A stretch of DNA of 55,334 bases from a virus. Its lineage: Duplodnaviria; Heunggongvirae; Uroviricota; Caudoviricetes. Under the pieces are notes generated by a model. It had not been told where the DNA came from. It searched no databases and saw nothing but the letters and a program-made list of their open reading frames with translations. The DNA lies in the IMG/VR virus record IMGVR_UViG_2737471838_000004, positions 1-55,334 of that record; one strand, written 5' to 3'. Positions 34,320 through 53,437 of this stretch are shown piece after piece. The translations under genes were made by a program, and so were the position numbers. The number at the start of each line of letters is the position of its first letter. The first letter of the stretch is position 1.

Positions 34320-34500
34320 GCTTGTAAATTTTGACAGGCTTAATAGGGATGGCAGGCAATTCGCCTTCGTTTAACGCGCTTGCCATGCCCAATATTAAAC
34401 GCGCTTCCGCACCAGTTACTTTCTTACACCATGCACCGCCTGTTTTATCTTCGAACAAGATAACGGCAAATTGATCGTTTATTTCCAGCTTATCCATCAC
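34297..34500 (-). CDS. hypothetical protein
   Basis: 67-aa ORF, ATGA overlap with the Q-like gene stop. Confidence 0.4.
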   Translation of the reverse strand: MMDKLEINDQFAVILFEDKTGGAWCKKVTGAEARLILGMASALNEGELPAIPIKPVKIYKRGDDDEA

Positions 34501-35219
34501 TCACCCCGCGTCACTCGTTTAATTTCGTTATCCGCCCGCGCCTCTTCTTTGAACAATTCAGCAATGGCGTCTTCATAGAAAGCGCGGTATTTCTTCCACC
34601 ACGTTGATCGGCTTACCGGGAAAACAAGCTGATTAACCTCCTGCCGGACAAGATCTACAGGGAAACGCGAGTACCCGCGCCCGCCGCAGTGCTGGCACGT
34701 TTTGAAAACTGGCATTTCCGCCGCTTCACTGGCTGCTTTATCCGGTACTTCGCCACGTCCCTTGCATTGTTTACAATGATTGCGAACTGTCCCATGCCCC
34801 TTGCATTTTTTGCAAAGGTGTTTTTCCCCGTATTCGTCAAACGTAAATTTATATCCGCCGCACTCCATACAAGTTTTTTCCGTCGCGGCACTCTGGCAAT
34901 AATCACGAAACGCGAAAACGGCAACAAGAATAATGAGATCATTGCGTTGTGCCTCGTCCAGTTCCATAACGTATTTATAGTCTTTTGCCATAGCTCTTAA
35001 ACGCTCTGTAAGCAAAACTACGGCCTTATGTTTTTCGGCTTGTGATAGTTCCATCTTCCCTAAAAAAGCGCTATAACCAAGCTCTACGCGCGATTGCGCC
35101 ATACCCGCAGCGGTTAGCGCATCCGTTGTATTAAGCACATCCGGGGACGTGCCCCGGCTTTCGTCTGATAATCGCGGTGATTTGGGAAAGTGGAATTTTA
35201 GAATTGATTCTAAATTCAT
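34497..35219 (-). CDS. Q: putative late-gene antiterminator Q (zinc-finger type)
   Basis: 240 aa; Cys cluster CMECGG...CKKCKGHG...CKQCKGRG...CQHCGGRG; located downstream of rusA/ninG as in lambdoid phages. Confidence 0.5.
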   Translation of the reverse strand: MNLESILKFHFPKSPRLSDESRGTSPDVLNTTDALTAAGMAQSRVELGYSAFLGKMELSQAEKHKAVVLLTERLRAMAKDYKYVMELDEAQRNDLIILVAVFAFRDYCQSAATEKTCMECGGYKFTFDEYGEKHLCKKCKGHGTVRNHCKQCKGRGEVPDKAASEAAEMPVFKTCQHCGGRGYSRFPVDLVRQEVNQLVFPVSRSTWWKKYRAFYEDAIAELFKEEARADNEIKRVTRGE

Positions 35220-35804: not shown

Positions 35805-36289
35805 GGAGGATTTCTCATTTCATATTTGTGAAAACCGTATTTTATTTCAGCGTCACGTCTAGCGCGTATTGCGTCTTCTATATCTTTAAACCTCCCTAAA
35901 TAGATTGTTTTGCCGTTTACATGTATAAAAGCGTCATAAGCGTTTTTATGGAAGTAGACCCCGGTTATTCCTAGTTTATTATTTTTCTGCACGTTCCTAT
36001 TTTGTTGGTTTTGCTGTGGAGTAACAAGAAACAGGTTTTCTATATTATTATTTAGTCGGTTTCTATCAAAATGATCTATTTGATACCCTTCCGGGATCGG
36101 GCCGTTGTGCATCTCCCAAATAATATGATGTGCCAAATACATGTTTTGTTTGTATTTTATTAATCTGTAAGACGTTGTGCTACTCACACAACCAGCAAGA
36201 TCACCGACACAAATTTTTCCGTGTTTTGGTTTTATTTTCCAGTAAAGATCGCCATTTCTATATTCAAATATATCACCCCAATTATGCAC
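35801..36289 (-). CDS. HNH homing-endonuclease-like protein (HNH + AP2-like)
   Basis: 162 aa; IWEMHNGPIPEGYQIDHFDRNRLNN...NLFLVT; paralog of 49570..50073 and 52979..53437. Confidence 0.75.
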   Translation of the reverse strand: MHNWGDIFEYRNGDLYWKIKPKHGKICVGDLAGCVSSTTSYRLIKYKQNMYLAHHIIWEMHNGPIPEGYQIDHFDRNRLNNNIENLFLVTPQQNQQNRNVQKNNKLGITGVYFHKNAYDAFIHVNGKTIYLGRFKDIEDAIRARRDAEIKYGFHKYEMRNPP

Positions 36290-36890
36290 ACTTACCTCTC
36301 CTTAAATCATCTAATTTTTTTTGATAGTATTGAATAAGCTCTTTACACTCCTGAATGGTCCATTTATGAGTCTCGTTATTATTTTCTAATGCCTCCACCC
36401 GTTTTAAGCCAATGCGCTTAATCAAATTAATTCTGTATAGTTTGATATTCCCGTCTAATACCTGATTGCAGTGCTTACATTGACGATGAATATTGTCCTC
36501 ATTAAAACGAAGATGCCCGGCGGCGGCTACACTTCTCATATGCCCCGCGTCCCAACCGCATTGATCGCCGTAGTAAGTGCCACACGAAATACAGGGTAAA
36601 TTTGCGTCGCGCTCTCTTATATACGCATTACATACCGCCTGGCACTGTTTCAACCAATAACTACGCGGATTTAACTGTTTCCGCTTACGGTTGCGTTCTT
36701 CCCGCTGGCTATCACGGCGTTTCTTCCGTTCCATCGCCTTCATAGCCTTCTCACGGTCGCGGCATAACTGGTCAAACTTCAGTTCTTCCAGACATTCATC
36801 GCTGCACCACGTTTGATTGTGATATTTAGGCTCAAAAAAAACGCCGCAGCATTTGCAACGGCGTCGTATGGGTTTTTTAGGGTTTTGCAT
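36282..36890 (-). CDS. ninG: NinG (Rap) recombination-associated protein
   Basis: ORF 36282..37019 trimmed to MQNPKKPIRRRCKCCG with GGGGTGG RBS; Cys-rich N-terminus and LPCISCG...DAGH...RFNE..NIH.QC..CN motifs of the NinG family. Confidence 0.75.
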   Translation of the reverse strand: MQNPKKPIRRRCKCCGVFFEPKYHNQTWCSDECLEELKFDQLCRDREKAMKAMERKKRRDSQREERNRKRKQLNPRSYWLKQCQAVCNAYIRERDANLPCISCGTYYGDQCGWDAGHMRSVAAAGHLRFNEDNIHRQCKHCNQVLDGNIKLYRINLIKRIGLKRVEALENNNETHKWTIQECKELIQYYQKKLDDLRRGKCA

Positions 36891-36904
36891 AAAAACCACC
36901 CCGA

Positions 36905-37081
36905 TTATTTTTGATTCTCTGTTTCGTTCAGCCTTTCGGCGTGTCCGGCCCTTAGCCAATGATCTAAACATTCGTTGCACTCGTTGCAGTCTCCTTTCTT
37001 CGTGCTGCATACATTGCACATTGCACGCATGACGCTTTCTCGTTCATAGTCGTCATGCCATTGGTAATTATCAAAAGGCAT
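36905..37081 (-). CDS. small Cys-rich (zinc-ribbon-like) protein
   Basis: hand-translated 58 aa MPFDNYQWHDDYERESVMRAMCNVCSTKKGDCNECNECLDHW...; AAGGAGA RBS. Confidence 0.4.
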   Translation of the reverse strand: MPFDNYQWHDDYERESVMRAMCNVCSTKKGDCNECNECLDHWLRAGHAERLNETENQK

Positions 37082-42748: not shown

Positions 42749-43054
42749 TTAATCGTTAATAACCTGGCCCATACGACCGCGATATTTGCGCATACGTGGA
42801 TCGACATATTCAGGCCAGTGCATATCCGGTTTTCTTTGCAGTGGGTAAAAACTTGCTTGCCAGTTGTCGAACCATATTTGCTTTGCGTACAGGTCACTAA
42901 ATCTTTTTGCCATCCGTTCCGCTGCCGTGCCGCATAAAAAAAGCCCATGATCGATTTGATCACGGGCTTCTTTTAATACTTGCTCTTTTGTTCGCGGAAT
43001 CGGTGGCGCATTAAGATAATGCGTAGATTCTGCTTTTGCCATACTGTAAACCAA
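42749..43054 (-). CDS. hypothetical protein
   Basis: 101-aa ORF directly downstream of ssb; start uncertain. Confidence 0.4.
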   Translation of the reverse strand: MVYSMAKAESTHYLNAPPIPRTKEQVLKEARDQIDHGLFLCGTAAERMAKRFSDLYAKQIWFDNWQASFYPLQRKPDMHWPEYVDPRMRKYRGRMGQVIND

Positions 43055-43478
43055 TAGGACTGAATGGAATATCGTCGTCGAAGTCCATCGGCGGCGGATT
43101 ATTCCCGTTATTATTCTGCTGCTGCGGCGGCGCTTTCTGCTGCTGGCCTTGCTGCTGGCCTTGTTGGTTGACGTTCATGAATTCGAACTCATTAACCGCC
43201 ACTTCGACCGCCGTCCCCTTCGTGCCATCGTTCCGGTCAAACTGCCGAACATCCAGGCGACCGCTTACCACTATCTTTCCACCCTTGCGGATATGCGGCG
43301 CTAATTTTTCCGCACGCTCACCAAATACCAGACAAGTGATCCACATTACCCGCTTATTATCGCCGTAGCCATTCGTTACAGCTAACGGAAAACTACCAAT
43401 AGCTTTCCCGTTTTGCGTGTAGCGCACTTCCATATCATTACCGATATTCCCGCCCAGCGTGATTGAATTTAAACTCAT
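43011..43478 (-). CDS. ssb: single-stranded DNA-binding protein
   Basis: 155 aa; OB-fold region, Gln/Gly-rich linker and acidic C-terminal tail DFDDDIPF. Confidence 0.85.
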   Translation of the reverse strand: MSLNSITLGGNIGNDMEVRYTQNGKAIGSFPLAVTNGYGDNKRVMWITCLVFGERAEKLAPHIRKGGKIVVSGRLDVRQFDRNDGTKGTAVEVAVNEFEFMNVNQQGQQQGQQQKAPPQQQNNNGNNPPPMDFDDDIPFSPIGLQYGKSRIYALS

Positions 43479-44113
43479 TAATTGATCTCCCCGTTAAGCT
43501 CTTTTAAGCGAATGTCATAAACGTCTTTCGCTTTCTGTTGTTGTTCTGAATCCTTAGGCAATAGCTTCCAGCACTTGCCGAAGATCTCGCGTAACTTGTT
43601 AGCGTCAGGCGCTTTTGCTGCTGCATCACAGAAACGTGCTAATACTTCATCAGGATTTGGCGGCGCTTTCTGCTGCTGTTGTTTTGGCGGGTTTTTCTGC
43701 TGTCGCGGCTGTTGATTTGTCTGTTTCGCGTAAGCATCAGTATCAGGATCTTTTGCGTCATCAATGCAGAATAAGCCGTTCAAAGCATATTTTCGCGCGT
43801 AACTTGATGTCGCTCCTGTTAGCTGGCTTGCATCCATACCCTTCTTGCTTTCTTCCTCCCTGGCGTAAGCAGTTACCGCTATTACGTCTTCACCGTCGCT
43901 TAATGTTGCAGTTGCTTTCACATAATAGCGATTGCCGATCAGGACAATTTCATCACTTACAGTCAGCGTGATATTTTGAAGCAGTGGTTTAACCGCCTCT
44001 AGAATATCCTCCGCCGACCTGTAATTATACCCGCCAAAATTATTACGCTGATTTTTCGGCGCGTTCAGCGTTTGCTGAATCGTCCACAGCTTTTTGTGTA
44101 ACTCTGTTTTCAC
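43478..44113 (-). CDS. erf: Erf-family single-strand annealing protein
   Basis: 211 aa; N-terminal region with YNYRSAEDI typical of ERF recombinases; GTG start with AAGGAGA RBS; adjacent to ssb. Confidence 0.65.
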   Translation of the reverse strand: MKTELHKKLWTIQQTLNAPKNQRNNFGGYNYRSAEDILEAVKPLLQNITLTVSDEIVLIGNRYYVKATATLSDGEDVIAVTAYAREEESKKGMDASQLTGATSSYARKYALNGLFCIDDAKDPDTDAYAKQTNQQPRQQKNPPKQQQQKAPPNPDEVLARFCDAAAKAPDANKLREIFGKCWKLLPKDSEQQQKAKDVYDIRLKELNGEIN

Positions 44114-45056: not shown

Positions 45057-45704
45057 TTATGGCAGGTTCACGATCTTCGCATCCACTACCACGCCTATGA
45101 TTTTAGATTCTGGATTCATAGGGATTGGCGGATACAGAGGATTGAGAGAACGTAAAAGCCTTTGACCTCCATCAATAACAAGCTGTTTAAACGTAGGCGT
45201 TTGCCCTTCCTCCAGTTGGGCTATAACCAGTTTTCCGTCAATAGCTGGCGCGTGCGGATCGACAAGTATCATCGTCCCCGCTGGTATACTCAATCCTTGC
45301 GGCGCGTTCATTGATTCGCCTTTAGCTACCAGCCAATAACTATCATCTGAACAAATAACGCTAGTCGTAACGTGTGGTAATGTTGATCGCCTTGTGTCTT
45401 CCATATTGTTTACTGCGTCCTTCCAGTCAACAACCGGGTAACTGCCTAAATCACGCGGCGGCGCACCCGGCAACGTGTTAGAAACAGAATCATCAATGAC
45501 CATTCCGTCATGAGTAACAGTGAATTGCCGACGACCAAGCGCCCGCATAATCCGCGCAATGTCTTCAAGATTTGGCTCACGGCGACCATTCAGCCAGTGT
45601 GATAAGCCGCCTTTCGTGATCCCCATGAGATCCGCCAATGAATCCTGGCTCATGCCTTGCGCACGCATAAGCTGCTTTGCTAAGTCATACCATTTTGTTT
45701 TCAT
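45057..45704 (-). CDS. cI: CI-like immunity repressor (HTH + S24 LexA-like autopeptidase domain)
   Basis: 215 aa; N-terminal HTH (QDSLADLMGITKGGLSHWLNGRR), C-terminal S24 motifs GESM and FKQL. Confidence 0.85.
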   Translation of the reverse strand: MKTKWYDLAKQLMRAQGMSQDSLADLMGITKGGLSHWLNGRREPNLEDIARIMRALGRRQFTVTHDGMVIDDSVSNTLPGAPPRDLGSYPVVDWKDAVNNMEDTRRSTLPHVTTSVICSDDSYWLVAKGESMNAPQGLSIPAGTMILVDPHAPAIDGKLVIAQLEEGQTPTFKQLVIDGGQRLLRSLNPLYPPIPMNPESKIIGVVVDAKIVNLP

Positions 45705-46009: not shown

Positions 46010-46255
46010 ATGTATTACGTGCGCAAGGCTTTTGATATTCGCCTGAATAACAATGATCCGGCGCAAAAACTCATCTTAATTGCACTGGCAACAAAGGCCG
46101 GATGCAACGGTAAAAGCGAAGTAACGCCGGAAGAGATCGCTGAAATGTGCGAAATTTCGTTACGAGATACTATCTCTGCACTTCATCAACTGAAAAGAAG
46201 CGGCCTGATCAGCCAGCTGCCAGGTTTCTTCTGTGTTTATCAGTTGATGTTCTAG
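46010..46255 (+). CDS. small HTH protein, first gene of rightward operon (possible Cro-like / initiator-N-domain paralog)
   Basis: 81 aa; AGGAG RBS; resembles N-terminal HTH domain of the following O-like protein. Confidence 0.45.
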   Translation: MYYVRKAFDIRLNNNDPAQKLILIALATKAGCNGKSEVTPEEIAEMCEISLRDTISALHQLKRSGLISQLPGFFCVYQLMF

Positions 46256-46276: not shown

Positions 46277-47305
46277 ATGAGTATGCGGCTAATGGTCGAG
46301 GTATTCCATACTGAGGTCGGGAACCCAATGCACAAACTAGTGCTGTTGAAGTTAGCTGATAACGCTAATGATAACGGCGAGTGTTACCCTTCTTACCATC
46401 ACATAGCAAAGGAATGCGAGATCAGTAAGAGTACAGCAATGAGGGCTGTCGACGCACTTTGTGAAAAAGGTCTATTGATTAAACAACCAAGATACTTAAT
46501 CGGAGGAAAGGAGCAAACGAGTAACTTCTATGTGATAGTTCTGCCATCATTGCAGGGTAGTGTCACAGTGACACCGGGGGTAGTGTCAGAGAGACACCAG
46601 GGTAGTGTCACAGTGACACCGGGGGTAGTGTCAGAGAGACACCAGGGTAGTGTCACAGTGACACCGGGGGTAGTGTCAGAGAGACACCCTAATCAGTCAT
46701 ATATAACCAGTAAAGAGAACATTAAGAACAATACACTTCGTGTATTGGAAAAAGACGAGTCTATCAGCGAAGAAGATCGGGTGGCTGATTTGGCAGCGTC
46801 GCGCGTACTCGATCACTATAACAACAAGTTTAATAGCAAGCATAAGGAGAAAAAATACTTTGTTAACCTACTGAAGAAGACAAAAACACGAGGCGCATAT
46901 ACTGAAGAAGATTTGATCATGGTTATCGACTGGATAGCGGAAACATGGTCGTTTAAACCGGAACCGATAAAGATCGCCAGGGTAAGCCGCTTTGATGAAT
47001 ACCGGGCAAAGGCTGAACAATGGCGAAGAGTTACAGCTACTGTAAACGCTGCCGATGTGGTGGAAGAGTTTAACATCACGTTTGATGGACTGTTGCCACC
47101 TGCCGAACTTGATCGTGATCTTGAACGCAAGATCTATGCGTTCACTGACTACCTGAAAGACAAAAGCATTAACGGCTTTATCGCCTACTTTGAAGCGTTC
47201 AAAAACACGGCTTCAGATTTTTACTTCGGCAATGGCTTCACTGCGACACTTGATTTCCTGCTTAAACCAAAAACGCTACGTGATACACGCGCTGGCGCTC
47301 TTTGA
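46277..47305 (+). CDS. replication initiation protein (lambda O-like) containing internal iteron array
   Basis: 342 aa; N-terminal HTH domain, linker encoded by 3 x 45-bp direct repeats (QGSVTVTPGVVSERH x3), C-terminal domain. Confidence 0.7.
   Translation: MSMRLMVEVFHTEVGNPMHKLVLLKLADNANDNGECYPSYHHIAKECEISKSTAMRAVDALCEKGLLIKQPRYLIGGKEQTSNFYVIVLPSLQGSVTVTPGVVSERHQGSVTVTPGVVSERHQGSVTVTPGVVSERHPNQSYITSKENIKNNTLRVLEKDESISEEDRVADLAASRVLDHYNNKFNSKHKEKKYFVNLLKKTKTRGAYTEEDLIMVIDWIAETWSFKPEPIKIARVSRFDEYRAKAEQWRRVTATVNAADVVEEFNITFDGLLPPAELDRDLERKIYAFTDYLKDKSINGFIAYFEAFKNTASDFYFGNGFTATLDFLLKPKTLRDTRAGAL
46553..46687 (+). repeat. origin iterons: 3 tandem 45-bp repeats, each two about 22-bp sub-iterons with internal dyad GTGTCAC..GTGACAC / GTGTC..GACAC
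   Basis: perfect tandem copies of CAGGGTAGTGTCACAGTGACACCGGGGGTAGTGTCAGAGAGACAC inside the O-like gene, followed by an AT-rich stretch. Confidence 0.8.
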
Positions 47306-47540: not shown

Positions 47541-47672
47541 CCTTCATACCAGTCTGTAAGTCAAAAATTAGCCACCTGAAAGCGCCTCTGACGCAATAAG
47601 ACACTGCAACCTGTGCAATCGGGTTACGCGGTGGGATTTTTGCGTTGTAGCGCGTTTTACGGAGAAATTACA

Positions 47673-48416
47673 ATGTCTGAGTTGATGAGTTTTAATTTTG
47701 ATAACAATAAAATCACTGCTGTAATTTATGACGGTAAACCTGCTTTCGTTGCAATGGATGTGGCGCGGGCGTTAGGGTACGCAACTCCGCAAAAAGCAAT
47801 TAGTGACCACTGTAAGTCATTGATAAAAATAAAATGTTCTGAAATGGAACATTTGGGATTCACTCCAATCCCGCAAGGAGTAACGCTAATCCATGAATCA
47901 GATGTTTACCGTCTGGTGATGCGTTCAAAAATAGAATCGGCTGAGCGCTTCCAGGATTGGGTGTGTGAGGAGGTTCTCCCTGCTTTGCGTGAAAATGGAC
48001 ATTACGGTTTTAAACCAGCTTTGCCGGATTTCACTGACCCAGTCGCTGCGGCTCGCGCATGGGCGGATGAGGTGGAGAAAAAACGATTAGCACAGAAAGA
48101 AGTTGATCGTCTGGCGCTGGAAAACAAGGAATTAGCGCCAAAAGCGGCTGTCTGTGATGCGATTGTAAAAAATAAACAGCATCGCAATGCTACACAGGTT
48201 GCCAAGCCTTTGGGTATGACTGCTACGCAACTCAACAAAAAACTTGAACAGGTTGACGTGTACGATACTCGAATTAAGCGCGGCGGGCGTATGTTCAAAC
48301 AGTGGTTCGTAGATGAAGGCTATGGAGTGGTAAAATGTTCGGCTGATGGTTACGTCCAATCACTATTTACTGCTAAGGGCCAGATTTGGGTATCTGAACT
48401 TTTTGCTTGTAAGTAG
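47673..48416 (+). CDS. Bro-N domain antirepressor-like protein
   Basis: ORF 47613..48416 trimmed to MSELMSFNF with GGAGAAA RBS; N-terminal Bro-N-like region (FNFDNNKITAV...AMDVARALGY). Confidence 0.65.
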   Translation: MSELMSFNFDNNKITAVIYDGKPAFVAMDVARALGYATPQKAISDHCKSLIKIKCSEMEHLGFTPIPQGVTLIHESDVYRLVMRSKIESAERFQDWVCEEVLPALRENGHYGFKPALPDFTDPVAAARAWADEVEKKRLAQKEVDRLALENKELAPKAAVCDAIVKNKQHRNATQVAKPLGMTATQLNKKLEQVDVYDTRIKRGGRMFKQWFVDEGYGVVKCSADGYVQSLFTAKGQIWVSELFACK

Positions 48417-48449
48417 GTATACATTTTGTTAACTGGAGGAATTAACATT

Positions 48450-49580
48450 ATGTCGCAAAGAAAAATCAGCGATGAACAATTGATCGCTGAATACAACAAC
48501 GGTTTAACGTACAAACAGATCGCTGAAAAGTACGGCATGTCTAAACGCAATGTCGAACGCCTGGGCGCAAAACTGGCAAAACGCGGTTTAATATCAACAC
48601 GCCGCGCGCCTGGTTTTAGCGTTACTGGCGAGTCAGTGCTTGTTGACAATAACGGGAATACAGTCATGCGCTGGATTAAAACAGCCCGTGACCGCGACGA
48701 AATGGAAATGCTAATGGAAGCTGCACGCGACGCTTTCACGGATGAAATACCACGCGCGGAGGCCGTGCCAGTTCCGGAAATTGATTTTCAAAAAAGCCTG
48801 GCTCTTTATCCGGTATTTGATCTGCATATCGGGGCGCTTGCTCATAAAGCTGAATGCGGCGAGAGCTACGACACTGGGATCGCTGAGCGCGTGTTGAATG
48901 ACTTCTTTGACTACGCCGTTGGCGCTGCGCCGATGTCTGAAAAAGCTGTATTGCTTCTCGGTGGCGATCTGCTTCACTCTGACGGTATGGTCCCGGTGAC
49001 GCCAACAAGCGGGCACATTCTTGATCAAGATAGTCGCTACGCAAAACTTGTTTATGTGGCGATCCGGTCTGTCCGTCGTGCGGTAGGGAAGATGTTGCTA
49101 AATCATAAGGATGTGGAAATCCAGGTGTTATCAGGGAATCATGACCAGTCTGGTATGATTTGGCTACGTGCGGCGCTGGCGGCTTTTTACGAAGATGAAC
49201 CGCGCGTGACGGTTGATGTGTCCCCTGCCATCGTCCACCACACACAGTACGGAAAAACGTTCCTTGCTTACCACCACGGGCACACTATCAAAAAGCCTGA
49301 AAATTTATTGTCTGCTTGCGTCTCTGACTGGCGGGAAGACTTTGGCAAGTCAAAATATGTTTACGTACATGTGGGCCATTTGCACCATAAATCAGTGACA
49401 GAATCATCTATAGGCATAGTTGAACATCATGGCACGTTAGCGGGAAAAGACGCTTATTCAACTAATGGAGGATGGAGATCGCAACGTTGCGCTGCGGTTA
49501 TCATTTACAGTCCTGACTATGGCGAAATTGGTCGCTTTGTATATAGGCCTGAAATGGTGGAGTGTCATAATGTGGGATGA
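48450..49580 (+). CDS. HTH-domain protein fused to calcineurin-like metallophosphoesterase domain
   Basis: ORF 48426..49580 trimmed to MSQRKISDE (GGAGG RBS); N-terminal HTH (LTYKQIAEKYGMSKRNVERL); phosphoesterase motifs DLHIG, GGDLLHSD, GNHD, GHLHH. Confidence 0.55.
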   Translation: MSQRKISDEQLIAEYNNGLTYKQIAEKYGMSKRNVERLGAKLAKRGLISTRRAPGFSVTGESVLVDNNGNTVMRWIKTARDRDEMEMLMEAARDAFTDEIPRAEAVPVPEIDFQKSLALYPVFDLHIGALAHKAECGESYDTGIAERVLNDFFDYAVGAAPMSEKAVLLLGGDLLHSDGMVPVTPTSGHILDQDSRYAKLVYVAIRSVRRAVGKMLLNHKDVEIQVLSGNHDQSGMIWLRAALAAFYEDEPRVTVDVSPAIVHHTQYGKTFLAYHHGHTIKKPENLLSACVSDWREDFGKSKYVYVHVGHLHHKSVTESSIGIVEHHGTLAGKDAYSTNGGWRSQRCAAVIIYSPDYGEIGRFVYRPEMVECHNVG

Positions 49581-50073
49581 TTTATTTACCTATAGTGACG
49601 GCGTTCTATATTGGTCTTGTAATCGTGCAAACAACAAAATAAAAGCAGGTAGCGTGGCTGGATGTAAACATTATCGCGGATATTGGACTGTACGCGTTAA
49701 TGGTATTTGTTGCACATGGCGTCACCGCATTATCTGGGAAATGTTTAACGGCCCTATTCCTGATGGAATGGAAATAGATCACATAAATCATGTACCTGGT
49801 GATGATAGAATCGAAAACTTAAGGATGGTGACAAGGAAGGAGAATAACAGAAACAAAACAATGCCATCAAGTAACACTAGCGGATGCGTTGGCGTTACGT
49901 GGAACAAGAAAACCAATAAATGGCGTGCGCAAATAGGTATAAGGGGGTCTGATGGGAAAAAGAAAACAATATACGTTTATTACGGTGACTCATTTGATGA
50001 TGCCGTAAAAGCAAGAAAAGAAGCTGAAAGAATGTATAACTTTCATAGCAATCACGGCATTTCTTTACCATGA
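49570..50073 (+). CDS. HNH homing-endonuclease-like protein (HNH + AP2-like)
   Basis: ORF 49465..50073 trimmed to MWDDLFTYSDGVLYW; IIWEMFNGPIPDGMEIDHINH...NLRMVT. Confidence 0.75.
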   Translation: MWDDLFTYSDGVLYWSCNRANNKIKAGSVAGCKHYRGYWTVRVNGICCTWRHRIIWEMFNGPIPDGMEIDHINHVPGDDRIENLRMVTRKENNRNKTMPSSNTSGCVGVTWNKKTNKWRAQIGIRGSDGKKKTIYVYYGDSFDDAVKARKEAERMYNFHSNHGISLP

Positions 50074-50107: not shown

Positions 50108-51523
50108 ATGGTAACTGAGCAAATAAACTCGCTACGGCAGGAACGTGAGGCGTCAGTTATCGGCGGGCTACTGTTAGGTGGCCTTACTCCTAACGCGCAA
50201 GATGTTCTCGCCACACTTGATCCTGAAGTGTTCACGATCCCGCTTTATAAACGTGCGTTTGAAGTTATCCGGGCACAAGCCAGAAACAGGAATCTCATCG
50301 ATGCATTGCTGGTCGGTGATGAGATTGGTAATGAAAATTTCGTACCGCTGATGCAAACGGCGCGATCGTGCCCTTCTGCTGCCAACCTGAAGGGATACGC
50401 ACAGTTACTACGTGAAGAGCACCAGCGGCGGCAGATGTTGGAACTTATCGACGATATACGCTACAAGCTGGAGACGGGGACGCTAGAGGTCGTCAAAGAG
50501 ACGATGAAAGATTTTGATTCCCGGTATTCAAAATTAAAGGTAACGAAAGACAAGATTATCCCCGTTCTGTTGCGCGATGCGGTCCAGGAGTACACAGAAG
50601 TTTTAAGTAAGCGCATGGAATGCGGTGTCAATTCTGACAACATCAAAACAGGGATAGAACCACTCGACGAAATGTTAGGCGGCATTAACGCTACTGATTT
50701 AGTGCTTCTCGCCGGACGCCCTGGGTCTGGTAAATCTGCGTTGGCGCTGACAATTGCACGCGCTGCTGCTGAACGCCCTTACCCTGGAAGCAAGGATCAG
50801 CGGGTTGGCGTTTTGTTCTTCACGCTTGAAATGTCACTCGATCAGATGACTGAACGCGCTATCGCTGGCGCTGGCAATTTATCAACTGACTGCCTGCGCA
50901 ATCCGGTAAAACTTGATGATGAGGGGTGGGCGCATGTAGGCCAGGGGATGAGCGCACTTGCTAACCTTGAGGTGTGGATCGTTGACGCATCGCAGTTAAC
51001 GGTTGAGGAAATACGCGCAACAACGGAACGCATGAAGCAGGATCACCCGAACTTGGGTATGGTAATGATTGATTATATCGGTTTAATGCAGCTTGCTAAG
51101 GCAGAACGTCACGATCTCGCCGTGGGGCAATTATCGTGGTCGTTAAAGATGATGGCGAAAGAATTGCGTGTACCAGTGTTGGCGCTGGCGCAACTGTCAC
51201 GCCGCGTTGAGGAACGACCGAACAAGCGCCCTAACAATTCTGATCTTCGTGATTCTGGCAACCTTGAGCAAGATGCCGACAGGATCATCATGGTTTACCG
51301 CGATGGGTATTACGACGAGCAGTCTGTTGCCCGCGAATACATGGAAATCATTGTGTCAAAAAACCGTCATGGTAAGTCTGGAACTGTTTACCAGCGGTTT
51401 GATGACAACGGTAATATCTTGCCATGCGACCAGGCGCGCGCAGCCGCAGCGTGTATTCAGTCAATGAATCATCGCACAAGCCGTTTTAACCAACGAAACA
51501 ATCAGAATAACACATCTTTTTAA
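50108..51523 (+). CDS. dnaB: replicative DNA helicase (DnaB-like)
   Basis: 471 aa; DnaB N-terminal domain, Walker A GRPGSGKSA, RecA-like C-terminal domain. Confidence 0.85.
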   Translation: MVTEQINSLRQEREASVIGGLLLGGLTPNAQDVLATLDPEVFTIPLYKRAFEVIRAQARNRNLIDALLVGDEIGNENFVPLMQTARSCPSAANLKGYAQLLREEHQRRQMLELIDDIRYKLETGTLEVVKETMKDFDSRYSKLKVTKDKIIPVLLRDAVQEYTEVLSKRMECGVNSDNIKTGIEPLDEMLGGINATDLVLLAGRPGSGKSALALTIARAAAERPYPGSKDQRVGVLFFTLEMSLDQMTERAIAGAGNLSTDCLRNPVKLDDEGWAHVGQGMSALANLEVWIVDASQLTVEEIRATTERMKQDHPNLGMVMIDYIGLMQLAKAERHDLAVGQLSWSLKMMAKELRVPVLALAQLSRRVEERPNKRPNNSDLRDSGNLEQDADRIIMVYRDGYYDEQSVAREYMEIIVSKNRHGKSGTVYQRFDDNGNILPCDQARAAAACIQSMNHRTSRFNQRNNQNNTSF

Positions 51524-52570: not shown

Positions 52571-52986
52571 GGCAAATTAGATTTGAGATAGTAAACGACG
52601 CCGTGAAAGAAAATGCTGTCAGGCAGATAAGAGAGATCCAGCCTGATAGCAAAAGCCCGCTGATAATTACCATCCAGGAGAAAACCCGCTCGCTAAGTCA
52701 AAATGCGAGACTGCACGCCATGCTATCTGATATAGCAAGGCAAGCTGAGTATTTAGGCAAAAAAAGAACCATTGATTTTTGGAAGGGTTTATTTGTTTCT
52801 GGATGGATGATTGCTACTGGGTATAAAGCTGAAATAATTCCAGGGCTTGAAGGTGAGTTTATCAATATAAGGGTAAGCACTACAACTTTAAGCAAACGAG
52901 ATTTAAACGAATTAATGGAATATATCGAAGCATGGTGCGTCGCCAATGGTGTAAGATTATCAACGTGGAGAGTATATAATGGTTGA
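52567..52986 (+). CDS. ninB: NinB (Orf) recombination mediator
   Basis: 139 aa; NinB-family signature (ITIQEKTRSLSQNARLHAMLSDIARQ). Confidence 0.8.
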   Translation: MRQIRFEIVNDAVKENAVRQIREIQPDSKSPLIITIQEKTRSLSQNARLHAMLSDIARQAEYLGKKRTIDFWKGLFVSGWMIATGYKAEIIPGLEGEFINIRVSTTTLSKRDLNELMEYIEAWCVANGVRLSTWRVYNG

Positions 52987-53437
52987 TTGGCATTATTACT
53001 TTGAATATAGGGAAGGATTTTTGTATTGGAAGGTGAATCCTTCATGCAAAATAAAGGCTGGAGCATTGGCTGGAAGTTTCAGCCATCGCGGATACATGAA
53101 GGTAAGCATAAATAAAAGGCGTTATTATGTTCATCGGATTGTTTGGGAAATGCACAACGGCCCAATCCCTGTTGGGTATGAGGTGGATCATATAGATAGG
53201 AATCCATCCAATAATTTAATTCAGAATTTACGCCTTGTTACTCATAGGGTTAATATGAGGAACCAACCTCCTAAGACTAATAGCGGATGCATGGGTGTAT
53301 CATGGTATAAAGCATATAATAAATGGCAGGTTAGAATTAAAGTTGATGGTGTTACTTTATTTATAGGGTATTTTGAAAAATTAAGTGACGCAATAAATGC
53401 GAGAAAGGAAGCTGAATCTAAGTATTGGGGGCAATAA
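52979..53437 (+). CDS. HNH homing-endonuclease-like protein (HNH + AP2-like)
   Basis: 152 aa; YVHRIVWEMHNGPIPVGYEVDHIDRNPSNN...NLRLVT. Confidence 0.75.
   Translation: MVDWHYYFEYREGFLYWKVNPSCKIKAGALAGSFSHRGYMKVSINKRRYYVHRIVWEMHNGPIPVGYEVDHIDRNPSNNLIQNLRLVTHRVNMRNQPPKTNSGCMGVSWYKAYNKWQVRIKVDGVTLFIGYFEKLSDAINARKEAESKYWGQ

Follow-up and report, generated by a model that had tools for sequence, protein, structure and literature searches.

An HTH-metallophosphoesterase of the PHROG 704 family in an mEp021-like temperate coliphage as a candidate phage DNA nuclease

The window analyzed here is the 55,334-nt stretch of DNA of the virus record IMGVR_UViG_2737471838_000004, an mEp021-like temperate coliphage. 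Its early rightward operon carries a gene (48450-49580, plus strand) whose predicted product joins an N-terminal helix-turn-helix (HTH) to a C-terminal metallophosphoesterase (MPE) domain, an architecture confirmed by motifs, conservation, an AF2 model and family profiles. Judged by its homologs, this HTH-MPE protein is an ordinary member of a known and very common phage family, PHROG 704. We modestly favor the interpretation that it is an HTH-tethered, metal-dependent (Mn is proposed) DNA nuclease acting on replication or recombination intermediates or on host DNA. Its substrate and role are what we infer from the DNA-metabolism genes that surround family members and from the genetics of an ortholog in the T1-like phage Bas1. 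A first-pass annotation had described an atypical HTH-phosphoesterase fusion that might, for example, degrade cyclic-nucleotide signals. The fusion stands, while its atypical status does not and the cyclic-nucleotide role is now disfavored.

The open reading frame is intact from the ATG at 48450 to the TGA at 49578-49580 and encodes 376 amino acids plus stop; the 377 residues reported earlier had included the stop codon. A GGAGG ribosome-binding site (48435-48439, plus strand) can be read about 10 nt upstream of this ATG, and the same start is used for mEp021_11, a "hypothetical protein" 97.6% identical to the window protein. With a TTG at 48426 as the alternative start, the Shine-Dalgarno sequence would fall within the reading frame, and the mEp021 annotation does not use that start. 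Copies in mEp515, mEp010, mEp013, mEp044 and mEp554 are 90-97% identical to the window protein. These phages make up the mEp-immI group, described as non-lambdoid and Nus-dependent (PMC11893012) in a paper that does not discuss the HTH-MPE gene.

The gene was first placed between an antirepressor and a helicase, which is roughly right. The upstream neighbor is a BRO-N/KilAC antirepressor (ATG 47670 to 48416, plus strand), and a DnaB-type replicative helicase, the operon's next conserved gene, lies downstream (50108-51523, plus strand; Pfam DnaB_C 7.5e-76, DnaB N-terminal domain 5.4e-12), but a free-standing HNH_3+AP2 homing-endonuclease gene of 167 aa (49570-50073, plus strand, ATG 49570; Pfam HNH_3 1.4e-21) intervenes before the helicase. 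The final 11 nt of the HTH-MPE gene are shared with this HNH gene, whose insertion accounts for the altered last seven residues of the HTH-MPE protein. Matches in mEp013, mEp044, mEp554 and 35 E. coli prophages end at residue 369 (nt 1104); the annotations of the three phages show no HNH feature in the matched regions. The divergence of the 35 prophage copies from nt 1104 is as expected if the HNH gene is absent from these as well.

The predicted catalytic core spans residues 113-365 (48786-49544, plus strand, as are all features of the gene), a beta-rich region in the AF2 model. Motif I (D124-L-H126, 48819-48827) contributes putative metal ligands, and motif II (G172-D173-L-L-H176-S-D178, 48963-48983), assigned by conservation and by alignment with Mre11, contains the candidate bridging aspartate; its H176 occupies the position of the histidine in the "GDLxH" motif of Mre11/SbcD. 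Motif III (G229-N230-H231-D232, 49134-49145) aligns with Mre11 GNHD, the motif IV region (Y274-H275-H276-G277, 49269-49280) offers H276 as a metal ligand, and motif V (G309-H310-L-H312, 49374-49385) aligns with Mre11 GHIH. We compared 60 homologs with identities down to about 30%. Invariant columns are D124, H126, G128, G172, D173, T184, N230, H231, H276, G309 and H312, while H176, D178, D232, G277 and H310 are at least 90% conserved. By sequence, these columns correspond to the complete set of binuclear-metal ligands that characterizes the calcineurin-like superfamily. The motif set quoted in the first-pass annotation (D.H, GDL.H.D, GNHD, GH.H) held up, since DLH (124-126), GDLLHSD (172-178), GNHD (229-232) and GHLH (309-312) each occur a single time and follow the canonical order, an ordered set that did not arise in any of 20,000 shuffles of the sequence.

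A family-specific conserved insert, VTPTSGHILDQDSR (residues 183-196, 48996-49037), follows motif II in the 60-sequence alignment. T184 is invariant in it, L191, D192, D194 and R196 are at least 90% conserved, and no counterpart was noted in the alignment with Thermotoga maritima Mre11. This insert could possibly form a substrate-binding loop.

Both a domain search and structure prediction had been suggested for checking the assignment, and the two support the HTH and MPE architecture. Searches of Pfam, NCBIfam and PDB sequences with the single protein returned weak HTH matches and no MPE match, and Pfam Metallophos did not match the window protein even at E<=1. Among the 60 family members, Metallophos was matched by 16 and Metallophos_2 by 12 (E<=0.01). 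The AF2 model built on the alignment has a mean pLDDT of 91 and consists of helices, a hairpin, a long helix and a beta-rich core with the beta-sandwich fold of MPE proteins. Because family members match Metallophos and the fold fits, membership of the superfamily holds by transitive homology and fold. A profile of the C-terminal domain matched T. maritima Mre11/SbcD at E 0.001 with collinear motif pairs (profile/Mre11: tDlHlG/SDWHLG, GDflH/GDLLH, GNHD/GNHD and GHlH/GHIH), so the motifs do align with the metallophosphoesterase fold. In Foldseek comparisons Rv0805 (6.9e-8) scored level with DP1 and Mre11 (about 1e-7). These three score alike, and the fold therefore leaves the substrate unfixed.

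The N-terminal domain is a predicted three-helix HTH of LuxR/GerE or sigma-70 region 4 type (residues 8-44, 48471-48581; AF2, Pfam and profile evidence). Its helices in the model cover residues 8-16, 21-28 and 32-44, with pLDDT of 91-94 for residues 11-40 and 84 for residues 41-50. Pfam searches with the single protein gave several sub-threshold HTH matches within residues 10-55 (E about 1e-3). The family profile matched GerE (E 8.6e-4) and also RhlR, sigma-H, NarL-type, LuxR/FixJ and sigma-70 region-4 HTHs, and among family members Sigma70_r4_2 was matched at 1.5e-9 and GerE at 2.4e-8. We consider the HTH of the window protein real but weak by sequence.

The HTH is linked to the core by a beta-hairpin (residues 58-78) and a long helix (79-97), together at 48621-48740 according to the AF2 secondary structure. 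A 317-aa homolog from a Campylobacter phage has no HTH; it aligns from query residue 62 and keeps hairpin, helix and core. Such homologs are a minority, and the hairpin-helix linker is retained in them. From these alignments, the HTH appears to be a usual but separable module of the family. The existence of HTH-less homologs further suggests that DNA tethering is not obligatory for the function of the core.

ICP1 Odn is a DNA-binding domain fused to a nuclease of the T5orf172 fold, which targets a satellite origin. Its likeness to the HTH-MPE protein is an architectural analogy, that of a phage nuclease steered by a fused DNA-binding domain, and the nuclease folds are unrelated. After the example of Odn, we considered the HTH as a mimic of the DNA-binding domain of the replication initiator and dropped this idea. 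A sequence comparison found no similarity between the HTH and the phage's own replication protein, and a small HTH reading frame opening the operon is only weakly similar. The latter resemblance (residues 19-56, 48504-48617, against 46121-46228) amounts to 37% identity over 38 residues at a pairwise E of 2e-4 and is matched by a 37-nt DNA repeat of 73% identity. It is probably a generic wHTH resemblance.

The window protein matched PHROG 704, annotated as "DNA repair exonuclease", at E 2.2e-144 (residues 4-370 against positions 2-389 of 390). By tblastn, 2,038 of 50,697 phage records carry homologs; in 1,953 of them the match covers at least 80% of the query including the HTH. The fusion, which had been thought atypical, is thus the normal form of the family. 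The gene occurs in T1 (ST16, 58% identity), most Drexlerviridae, Jerseyvirus and Dhillonvirus, with tblastn coverage of at least 97% for the T1-like, Jersey-like and Dhillonvirus proteins, and further homologs are found in some Autographiviridae, N4-like marine phages and many vibriophages. When 1.84 billion cluster representatives were scanned exhaustively with HMMER, 4,644 clusters (50% identity) scored at E<=1e-3; among the best 150 of these, 141 are at least 350 aa long. Existing labels include "putative phosphoesterase", "calcineurin-like phosphoesterase superfamily domain protein", "HTH and metallophosphatase domains containing protein" and "DNA polymerase II small subunit". In prophages of 35 of 5,426 complete E. 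coli genomes the gene is always labeled "hypothetical protein". Our literature search found no report of an enzymatic assay for any PHROG 704 member.

Since N4-like vibrio and roseophages carry homologs, we examined whether the family is the classical 5'-3' exonuclease encoded by N4. This was rejected, as tblastn with the query and with the homolog of SBP1 gave no match in the first 40 kb of N4. Two T1-like copies, 64-66% identical, come from records named "Streptococcus phage MBBL140" and "Campylobacter phage A14a" (47 kb). Both records look like coliphage-type (Drexlerviridae) genomes, and their host labels are doubtful.

Within PHROG 704, T1 ST16, gp37 of Citrobacter phage Stevie and Bas01_0050 share the HTH+MPE architecture, a length of about 370-380 aa and the invariant residues, and the T1-like proteins are 56-67% identical to the window protein. 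An HNH homing endonuclease often follows the gene in these phages. The window copy belongs to a temperate coliphage and lies in a DnaB operon, while the copy of virulent T1-like phages closes an SF2 helicase/Dam operon and adjoins the lysis cassette; the window protein also differs from the T1-like proteins in its last seven residues, at the HNH insertion. Outside the family, the GDxxH and GNHD motifs of the MPE nuclease domain recall Mre11/SbcD, with marginal sequence similarity through the family profile. Mre11/SbcD, however, has a C-terminal capping domain, while the HTH-MPE protein ends 11 residues after its core, and unlike Mre11/SbcD it has an N-terminal HTH and the family-specific VTPxSGHxLDxDxR insert. 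No Rad50/SbcC partner was found among the three largest reading frames of the window (tail proteins) or the neighbors (antirepressor, HNH and DnaB), nor is one annotated near the gene in mEp021, T1 or Bas1. Lacking both capping domain and partner, the protein falls outside Mre11/SbcD. PolD DP1 has an OB fold before its MPE domain where the HTH-MPE protein has only the hairpin and helix, identity is 13%, and neither a DP2-like gene nor a polymerase was found in the window operon. With no OB fold and no DP2, it is not a DP1 member either, and at most it works like Mre11/SbcD or DP1.

The genomic surroundings of family members were sampled by hand in 13 annotated or Pfam-marked contexts. In T1 and Stevie an SF2 helicase, VRR-NUC and Dam are in the same operon as the MPE gene, and in Pantoea phage Nifs112 it belongs to a row of 5'-3' exonuclease, HNH, endonuclease VII, MPE, phosphatase, dNMP kinase and ligase genes. 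One locus (L015) has PolA, endonuclease VII, MPE and HAD_PNKP, a Campylobacter phage has ligase, MPE and Holliday-junction resolvase near one another, and KE08 has helicase, MPE and primase. A temperate phage (L007) carries DEAD helicase and primase, then MPE, then a Q antiterminator. Neighborhoods in unrelated phages are thus dominated by DNA-metabolism genes. In Dhillonvirus the gene lies between lysis and terminase genes. Since its position varies among phage groups, it is not strictly a replication-module gene. In the Jerseyvirus Salmonella phage SeF1 (locus L011, 4759-7626) it is part of a small opposite-strand island within the tail-gene cluster, together with superinfection immunity, HNH and antirepressor genes and far from the replication genes.

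Bas01_0050 of the T1-like BASEL phage Bas1 is 56% identical to the window protein (E 4e-158, residues 1-369 of 376). Spontaneous Bas1 escapers of the DRT7/UG10 reverse-transcriptase defense carry missense or frameshift mutations in this gene, expression of Bas01_0050 is toxic in E. coli, and, in parallel, lambda escapers of the same defense are mutated in gam (bioRxiv 10.64898/2026.02.16.706125). These genetics indicate that phages can do without the gene in the laboratory, that its expression harms the host and that the function of the family is linked to the biology of DNA ends. Taken together with the DNA-metabolism neighborhoods, they are the reason for favoring a nuclease.

In the proposed mechanism, the protein would be expressed from the early rightward (replication) operon and held on DNA by its LuxR/sigma-4-like HTH. 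A binuclear-metal center formed by D124, H126, D173, N230, H276, H310 and H312, with H176 and H231 as presumed catalytic helpers, would hydrolyze DNA phosphodiester bonds in the manner of Mre11/SbcD or of the proofreading exonuclease PolD DP1, and would do so without a Rad50/SbcC or polymerase partner. The protein would likely process DNA ends, or intermediates that arise as the phage replicates and recombines, or else attack host DNA, and its role would be accessory rather than essential. A more speculative extension, which we regard as doubtful, is that the action of these proteins on DNA ends is what DRT7/UG10-type defenses sense and that PHROG 704 HTH-MPE proteins, instead of being generic repair exonucleases, are functional counterparts of lambda Gam. 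They could, for example, act as an end-processing or anti-RecBCD nuclease or supply the host-DNA-degradation function of T1-like phages, with the HTH giving sequence- or structure-specific targeting.

Other activities of the MPE superfamily have to be weighed against a DNA nuclease. Lambda phosphatase and CthPnkp, both MPE enzymes, possess end-healing-type activities, and the HTH-MPE protein might likewise resemble the MPE domain of bacterial Pnkp. As a 3'-phosphatase or 2',3'-cyclic phosphodiesterase, it would clean up damaged ends of RNA or DNA so that a kinase and ligase can act on them, for instance once a host anticodon nuclease or a defense nuclease has attacked. This would agree with HAD_PNKP after the gene in L015, with phosphatase, dNMP kinase and DNA ligase after it in Nifs112 and with ligase before it in the Campylobacter phage. 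Moreover, Drexlerviridae without the SH3 gene mostly have polynucleotide kinase or dNMP kinase next (PMC13164509). The structural support for end healing is weaker, however, and the scanned reading frames of the window include no ligase or PNK domain; we regard it as unlikely. The example given in the first-pass annotation, an anti-defense phosphodiesterase destroying the cyclic nucleotide or oligonucleotide signals of CBASS, Pycsar or type III CRISPR, seems quite improbable. The core fold is as similar to the class III cyclic-nucleotide phosphodiesterases Rv0805/CpdA as to DP1 and Mre11, but an HTH has no obvious role in signal destruction and the gene sits amid DNA-metabolism genes. Under DRT7 defense the phage benefits, and does not suffer, when the ortholog is lost. 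PADLOC returned only insignificant matches to the HTH region of the protein, which also speaks against an anti-defense role. Unlike typical accessory anti-defense genes, the gene is persistent (core) in 508 of 522 Drexlerviridae, where a 2026 pangenome study found a persistent exonuclease-holin-endolysin-spanin block (PMC13164509).

Resemblance of the HTH to sigma-70 region 4, GerE and LuxR raises the possibility of a transcription regulator that controls the early-to-late switch or its own operon, with the MPE domain as sensor or accessory. The gene is often found where early and late genes meet: it directly precedes the lysis genes in T1-like phages, terminase in Dhillonvirus and the Q antiterminator in L007. 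Strict invariance of all catalytic residues nevertheless argues for an enzyme, some homologs have no HTH, Bas1 frameshift mutants are viable, which is unlikely for a late-gene activator, and the window phage has its own Q-type antiterminator (34500-35219, minus strand). We give a regulatory function about the same low probability as signal destruction. That the protein is a counterpart of lambda NinI, acting as a Ser/Thr/Tyr protein phosphatase, is very improbable. Both it and NinI are phage-encoded calcineurin-like MPE proteins of an early operon, and in one temperate relative the gene has a nin-like position just before Q, but the GDxVDRG and GNHE signatures of PPP phosphatases are missing from the HTH-MPE protein and its closest structural similarity is not to PPP enzymes. 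Among these possibilities, a DNA nuclease is the reading that we prefer.

The window instance is itself ordinary, with a closely related deposited mEp021 gene and a catalogued family. Interest rests on the abundance of the family, present in about 4% of sequenced phage genomes and near-universal in Drexlerviridae, and on the fresh link to DRT7, not on anything unusual at the locus. Assignment of a substrate would annotate thousands of phage genes and might explain what DRT7 senses. The PGAP/GenBank label "hypothetical protein" in mEp021 and E. coli prophages could become "HTH domain-containing metallophosphoesterase (PHROG 704)".

In at least six phage lineages that are unrelated to one another, a PHROG 704 gene has an HNH gene as its immediate neighbor. 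Examples are T1 ST15, bas01_0051, SeF1_025, gene 0034 of 98E30-1, ORF30 of Nifs112 and gp003/gp007 of SBP1. These neighbors probably represent homing endonucleases that exploit the conserved gene as a target. The window operon has two paralogous HNH_3(+AP2) homing-endonuclease genes, the one overlapping the HTH-MPE gene and another at 52979-53437 (DNA repeats D2 and D5).

The rightward operon diverges from a CI-like repressor (45057-45704, minus strand). It opens with the small HTH reading frame (46010-46255, plus strand), followed by a replication protein with an HTH_36 domain (46277-47305, plus strand), and continues past dnaB with further genes including NinB. The slot directly upstream of the HTH-MPE gene (47613-48416) is a swap site, occupied by the BRO-N/KilAC antirepressor here, by a 495-aa zinc-ribbon protein in mEp021 (locus L001, 4480-5967) and by Rha, BRO, KilAC or zinc-ribbon genes in E. 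coli prophages. A search of the operon for repeated DNA motifs as candidate HTH targets found only one array, at 46553-46688 inside the replication-protein gene. It consists of three perfect 45-bp tandem repeats, each with the palindrome GTGTCACAGTGACAC, which encode SVTVTPGVVSERHQG three times. By analogy with lambda O, these repeats look like origin iterons within an initiator gene. Leftward-strand genes include, in addition to the Q-type antiterminator, NinG (36285-37019) and Erf with SSB (43014-44113). In this phage group the "left" operon extends into the late genes, and the replication operon runs in the opposite direction, towards the integrase.
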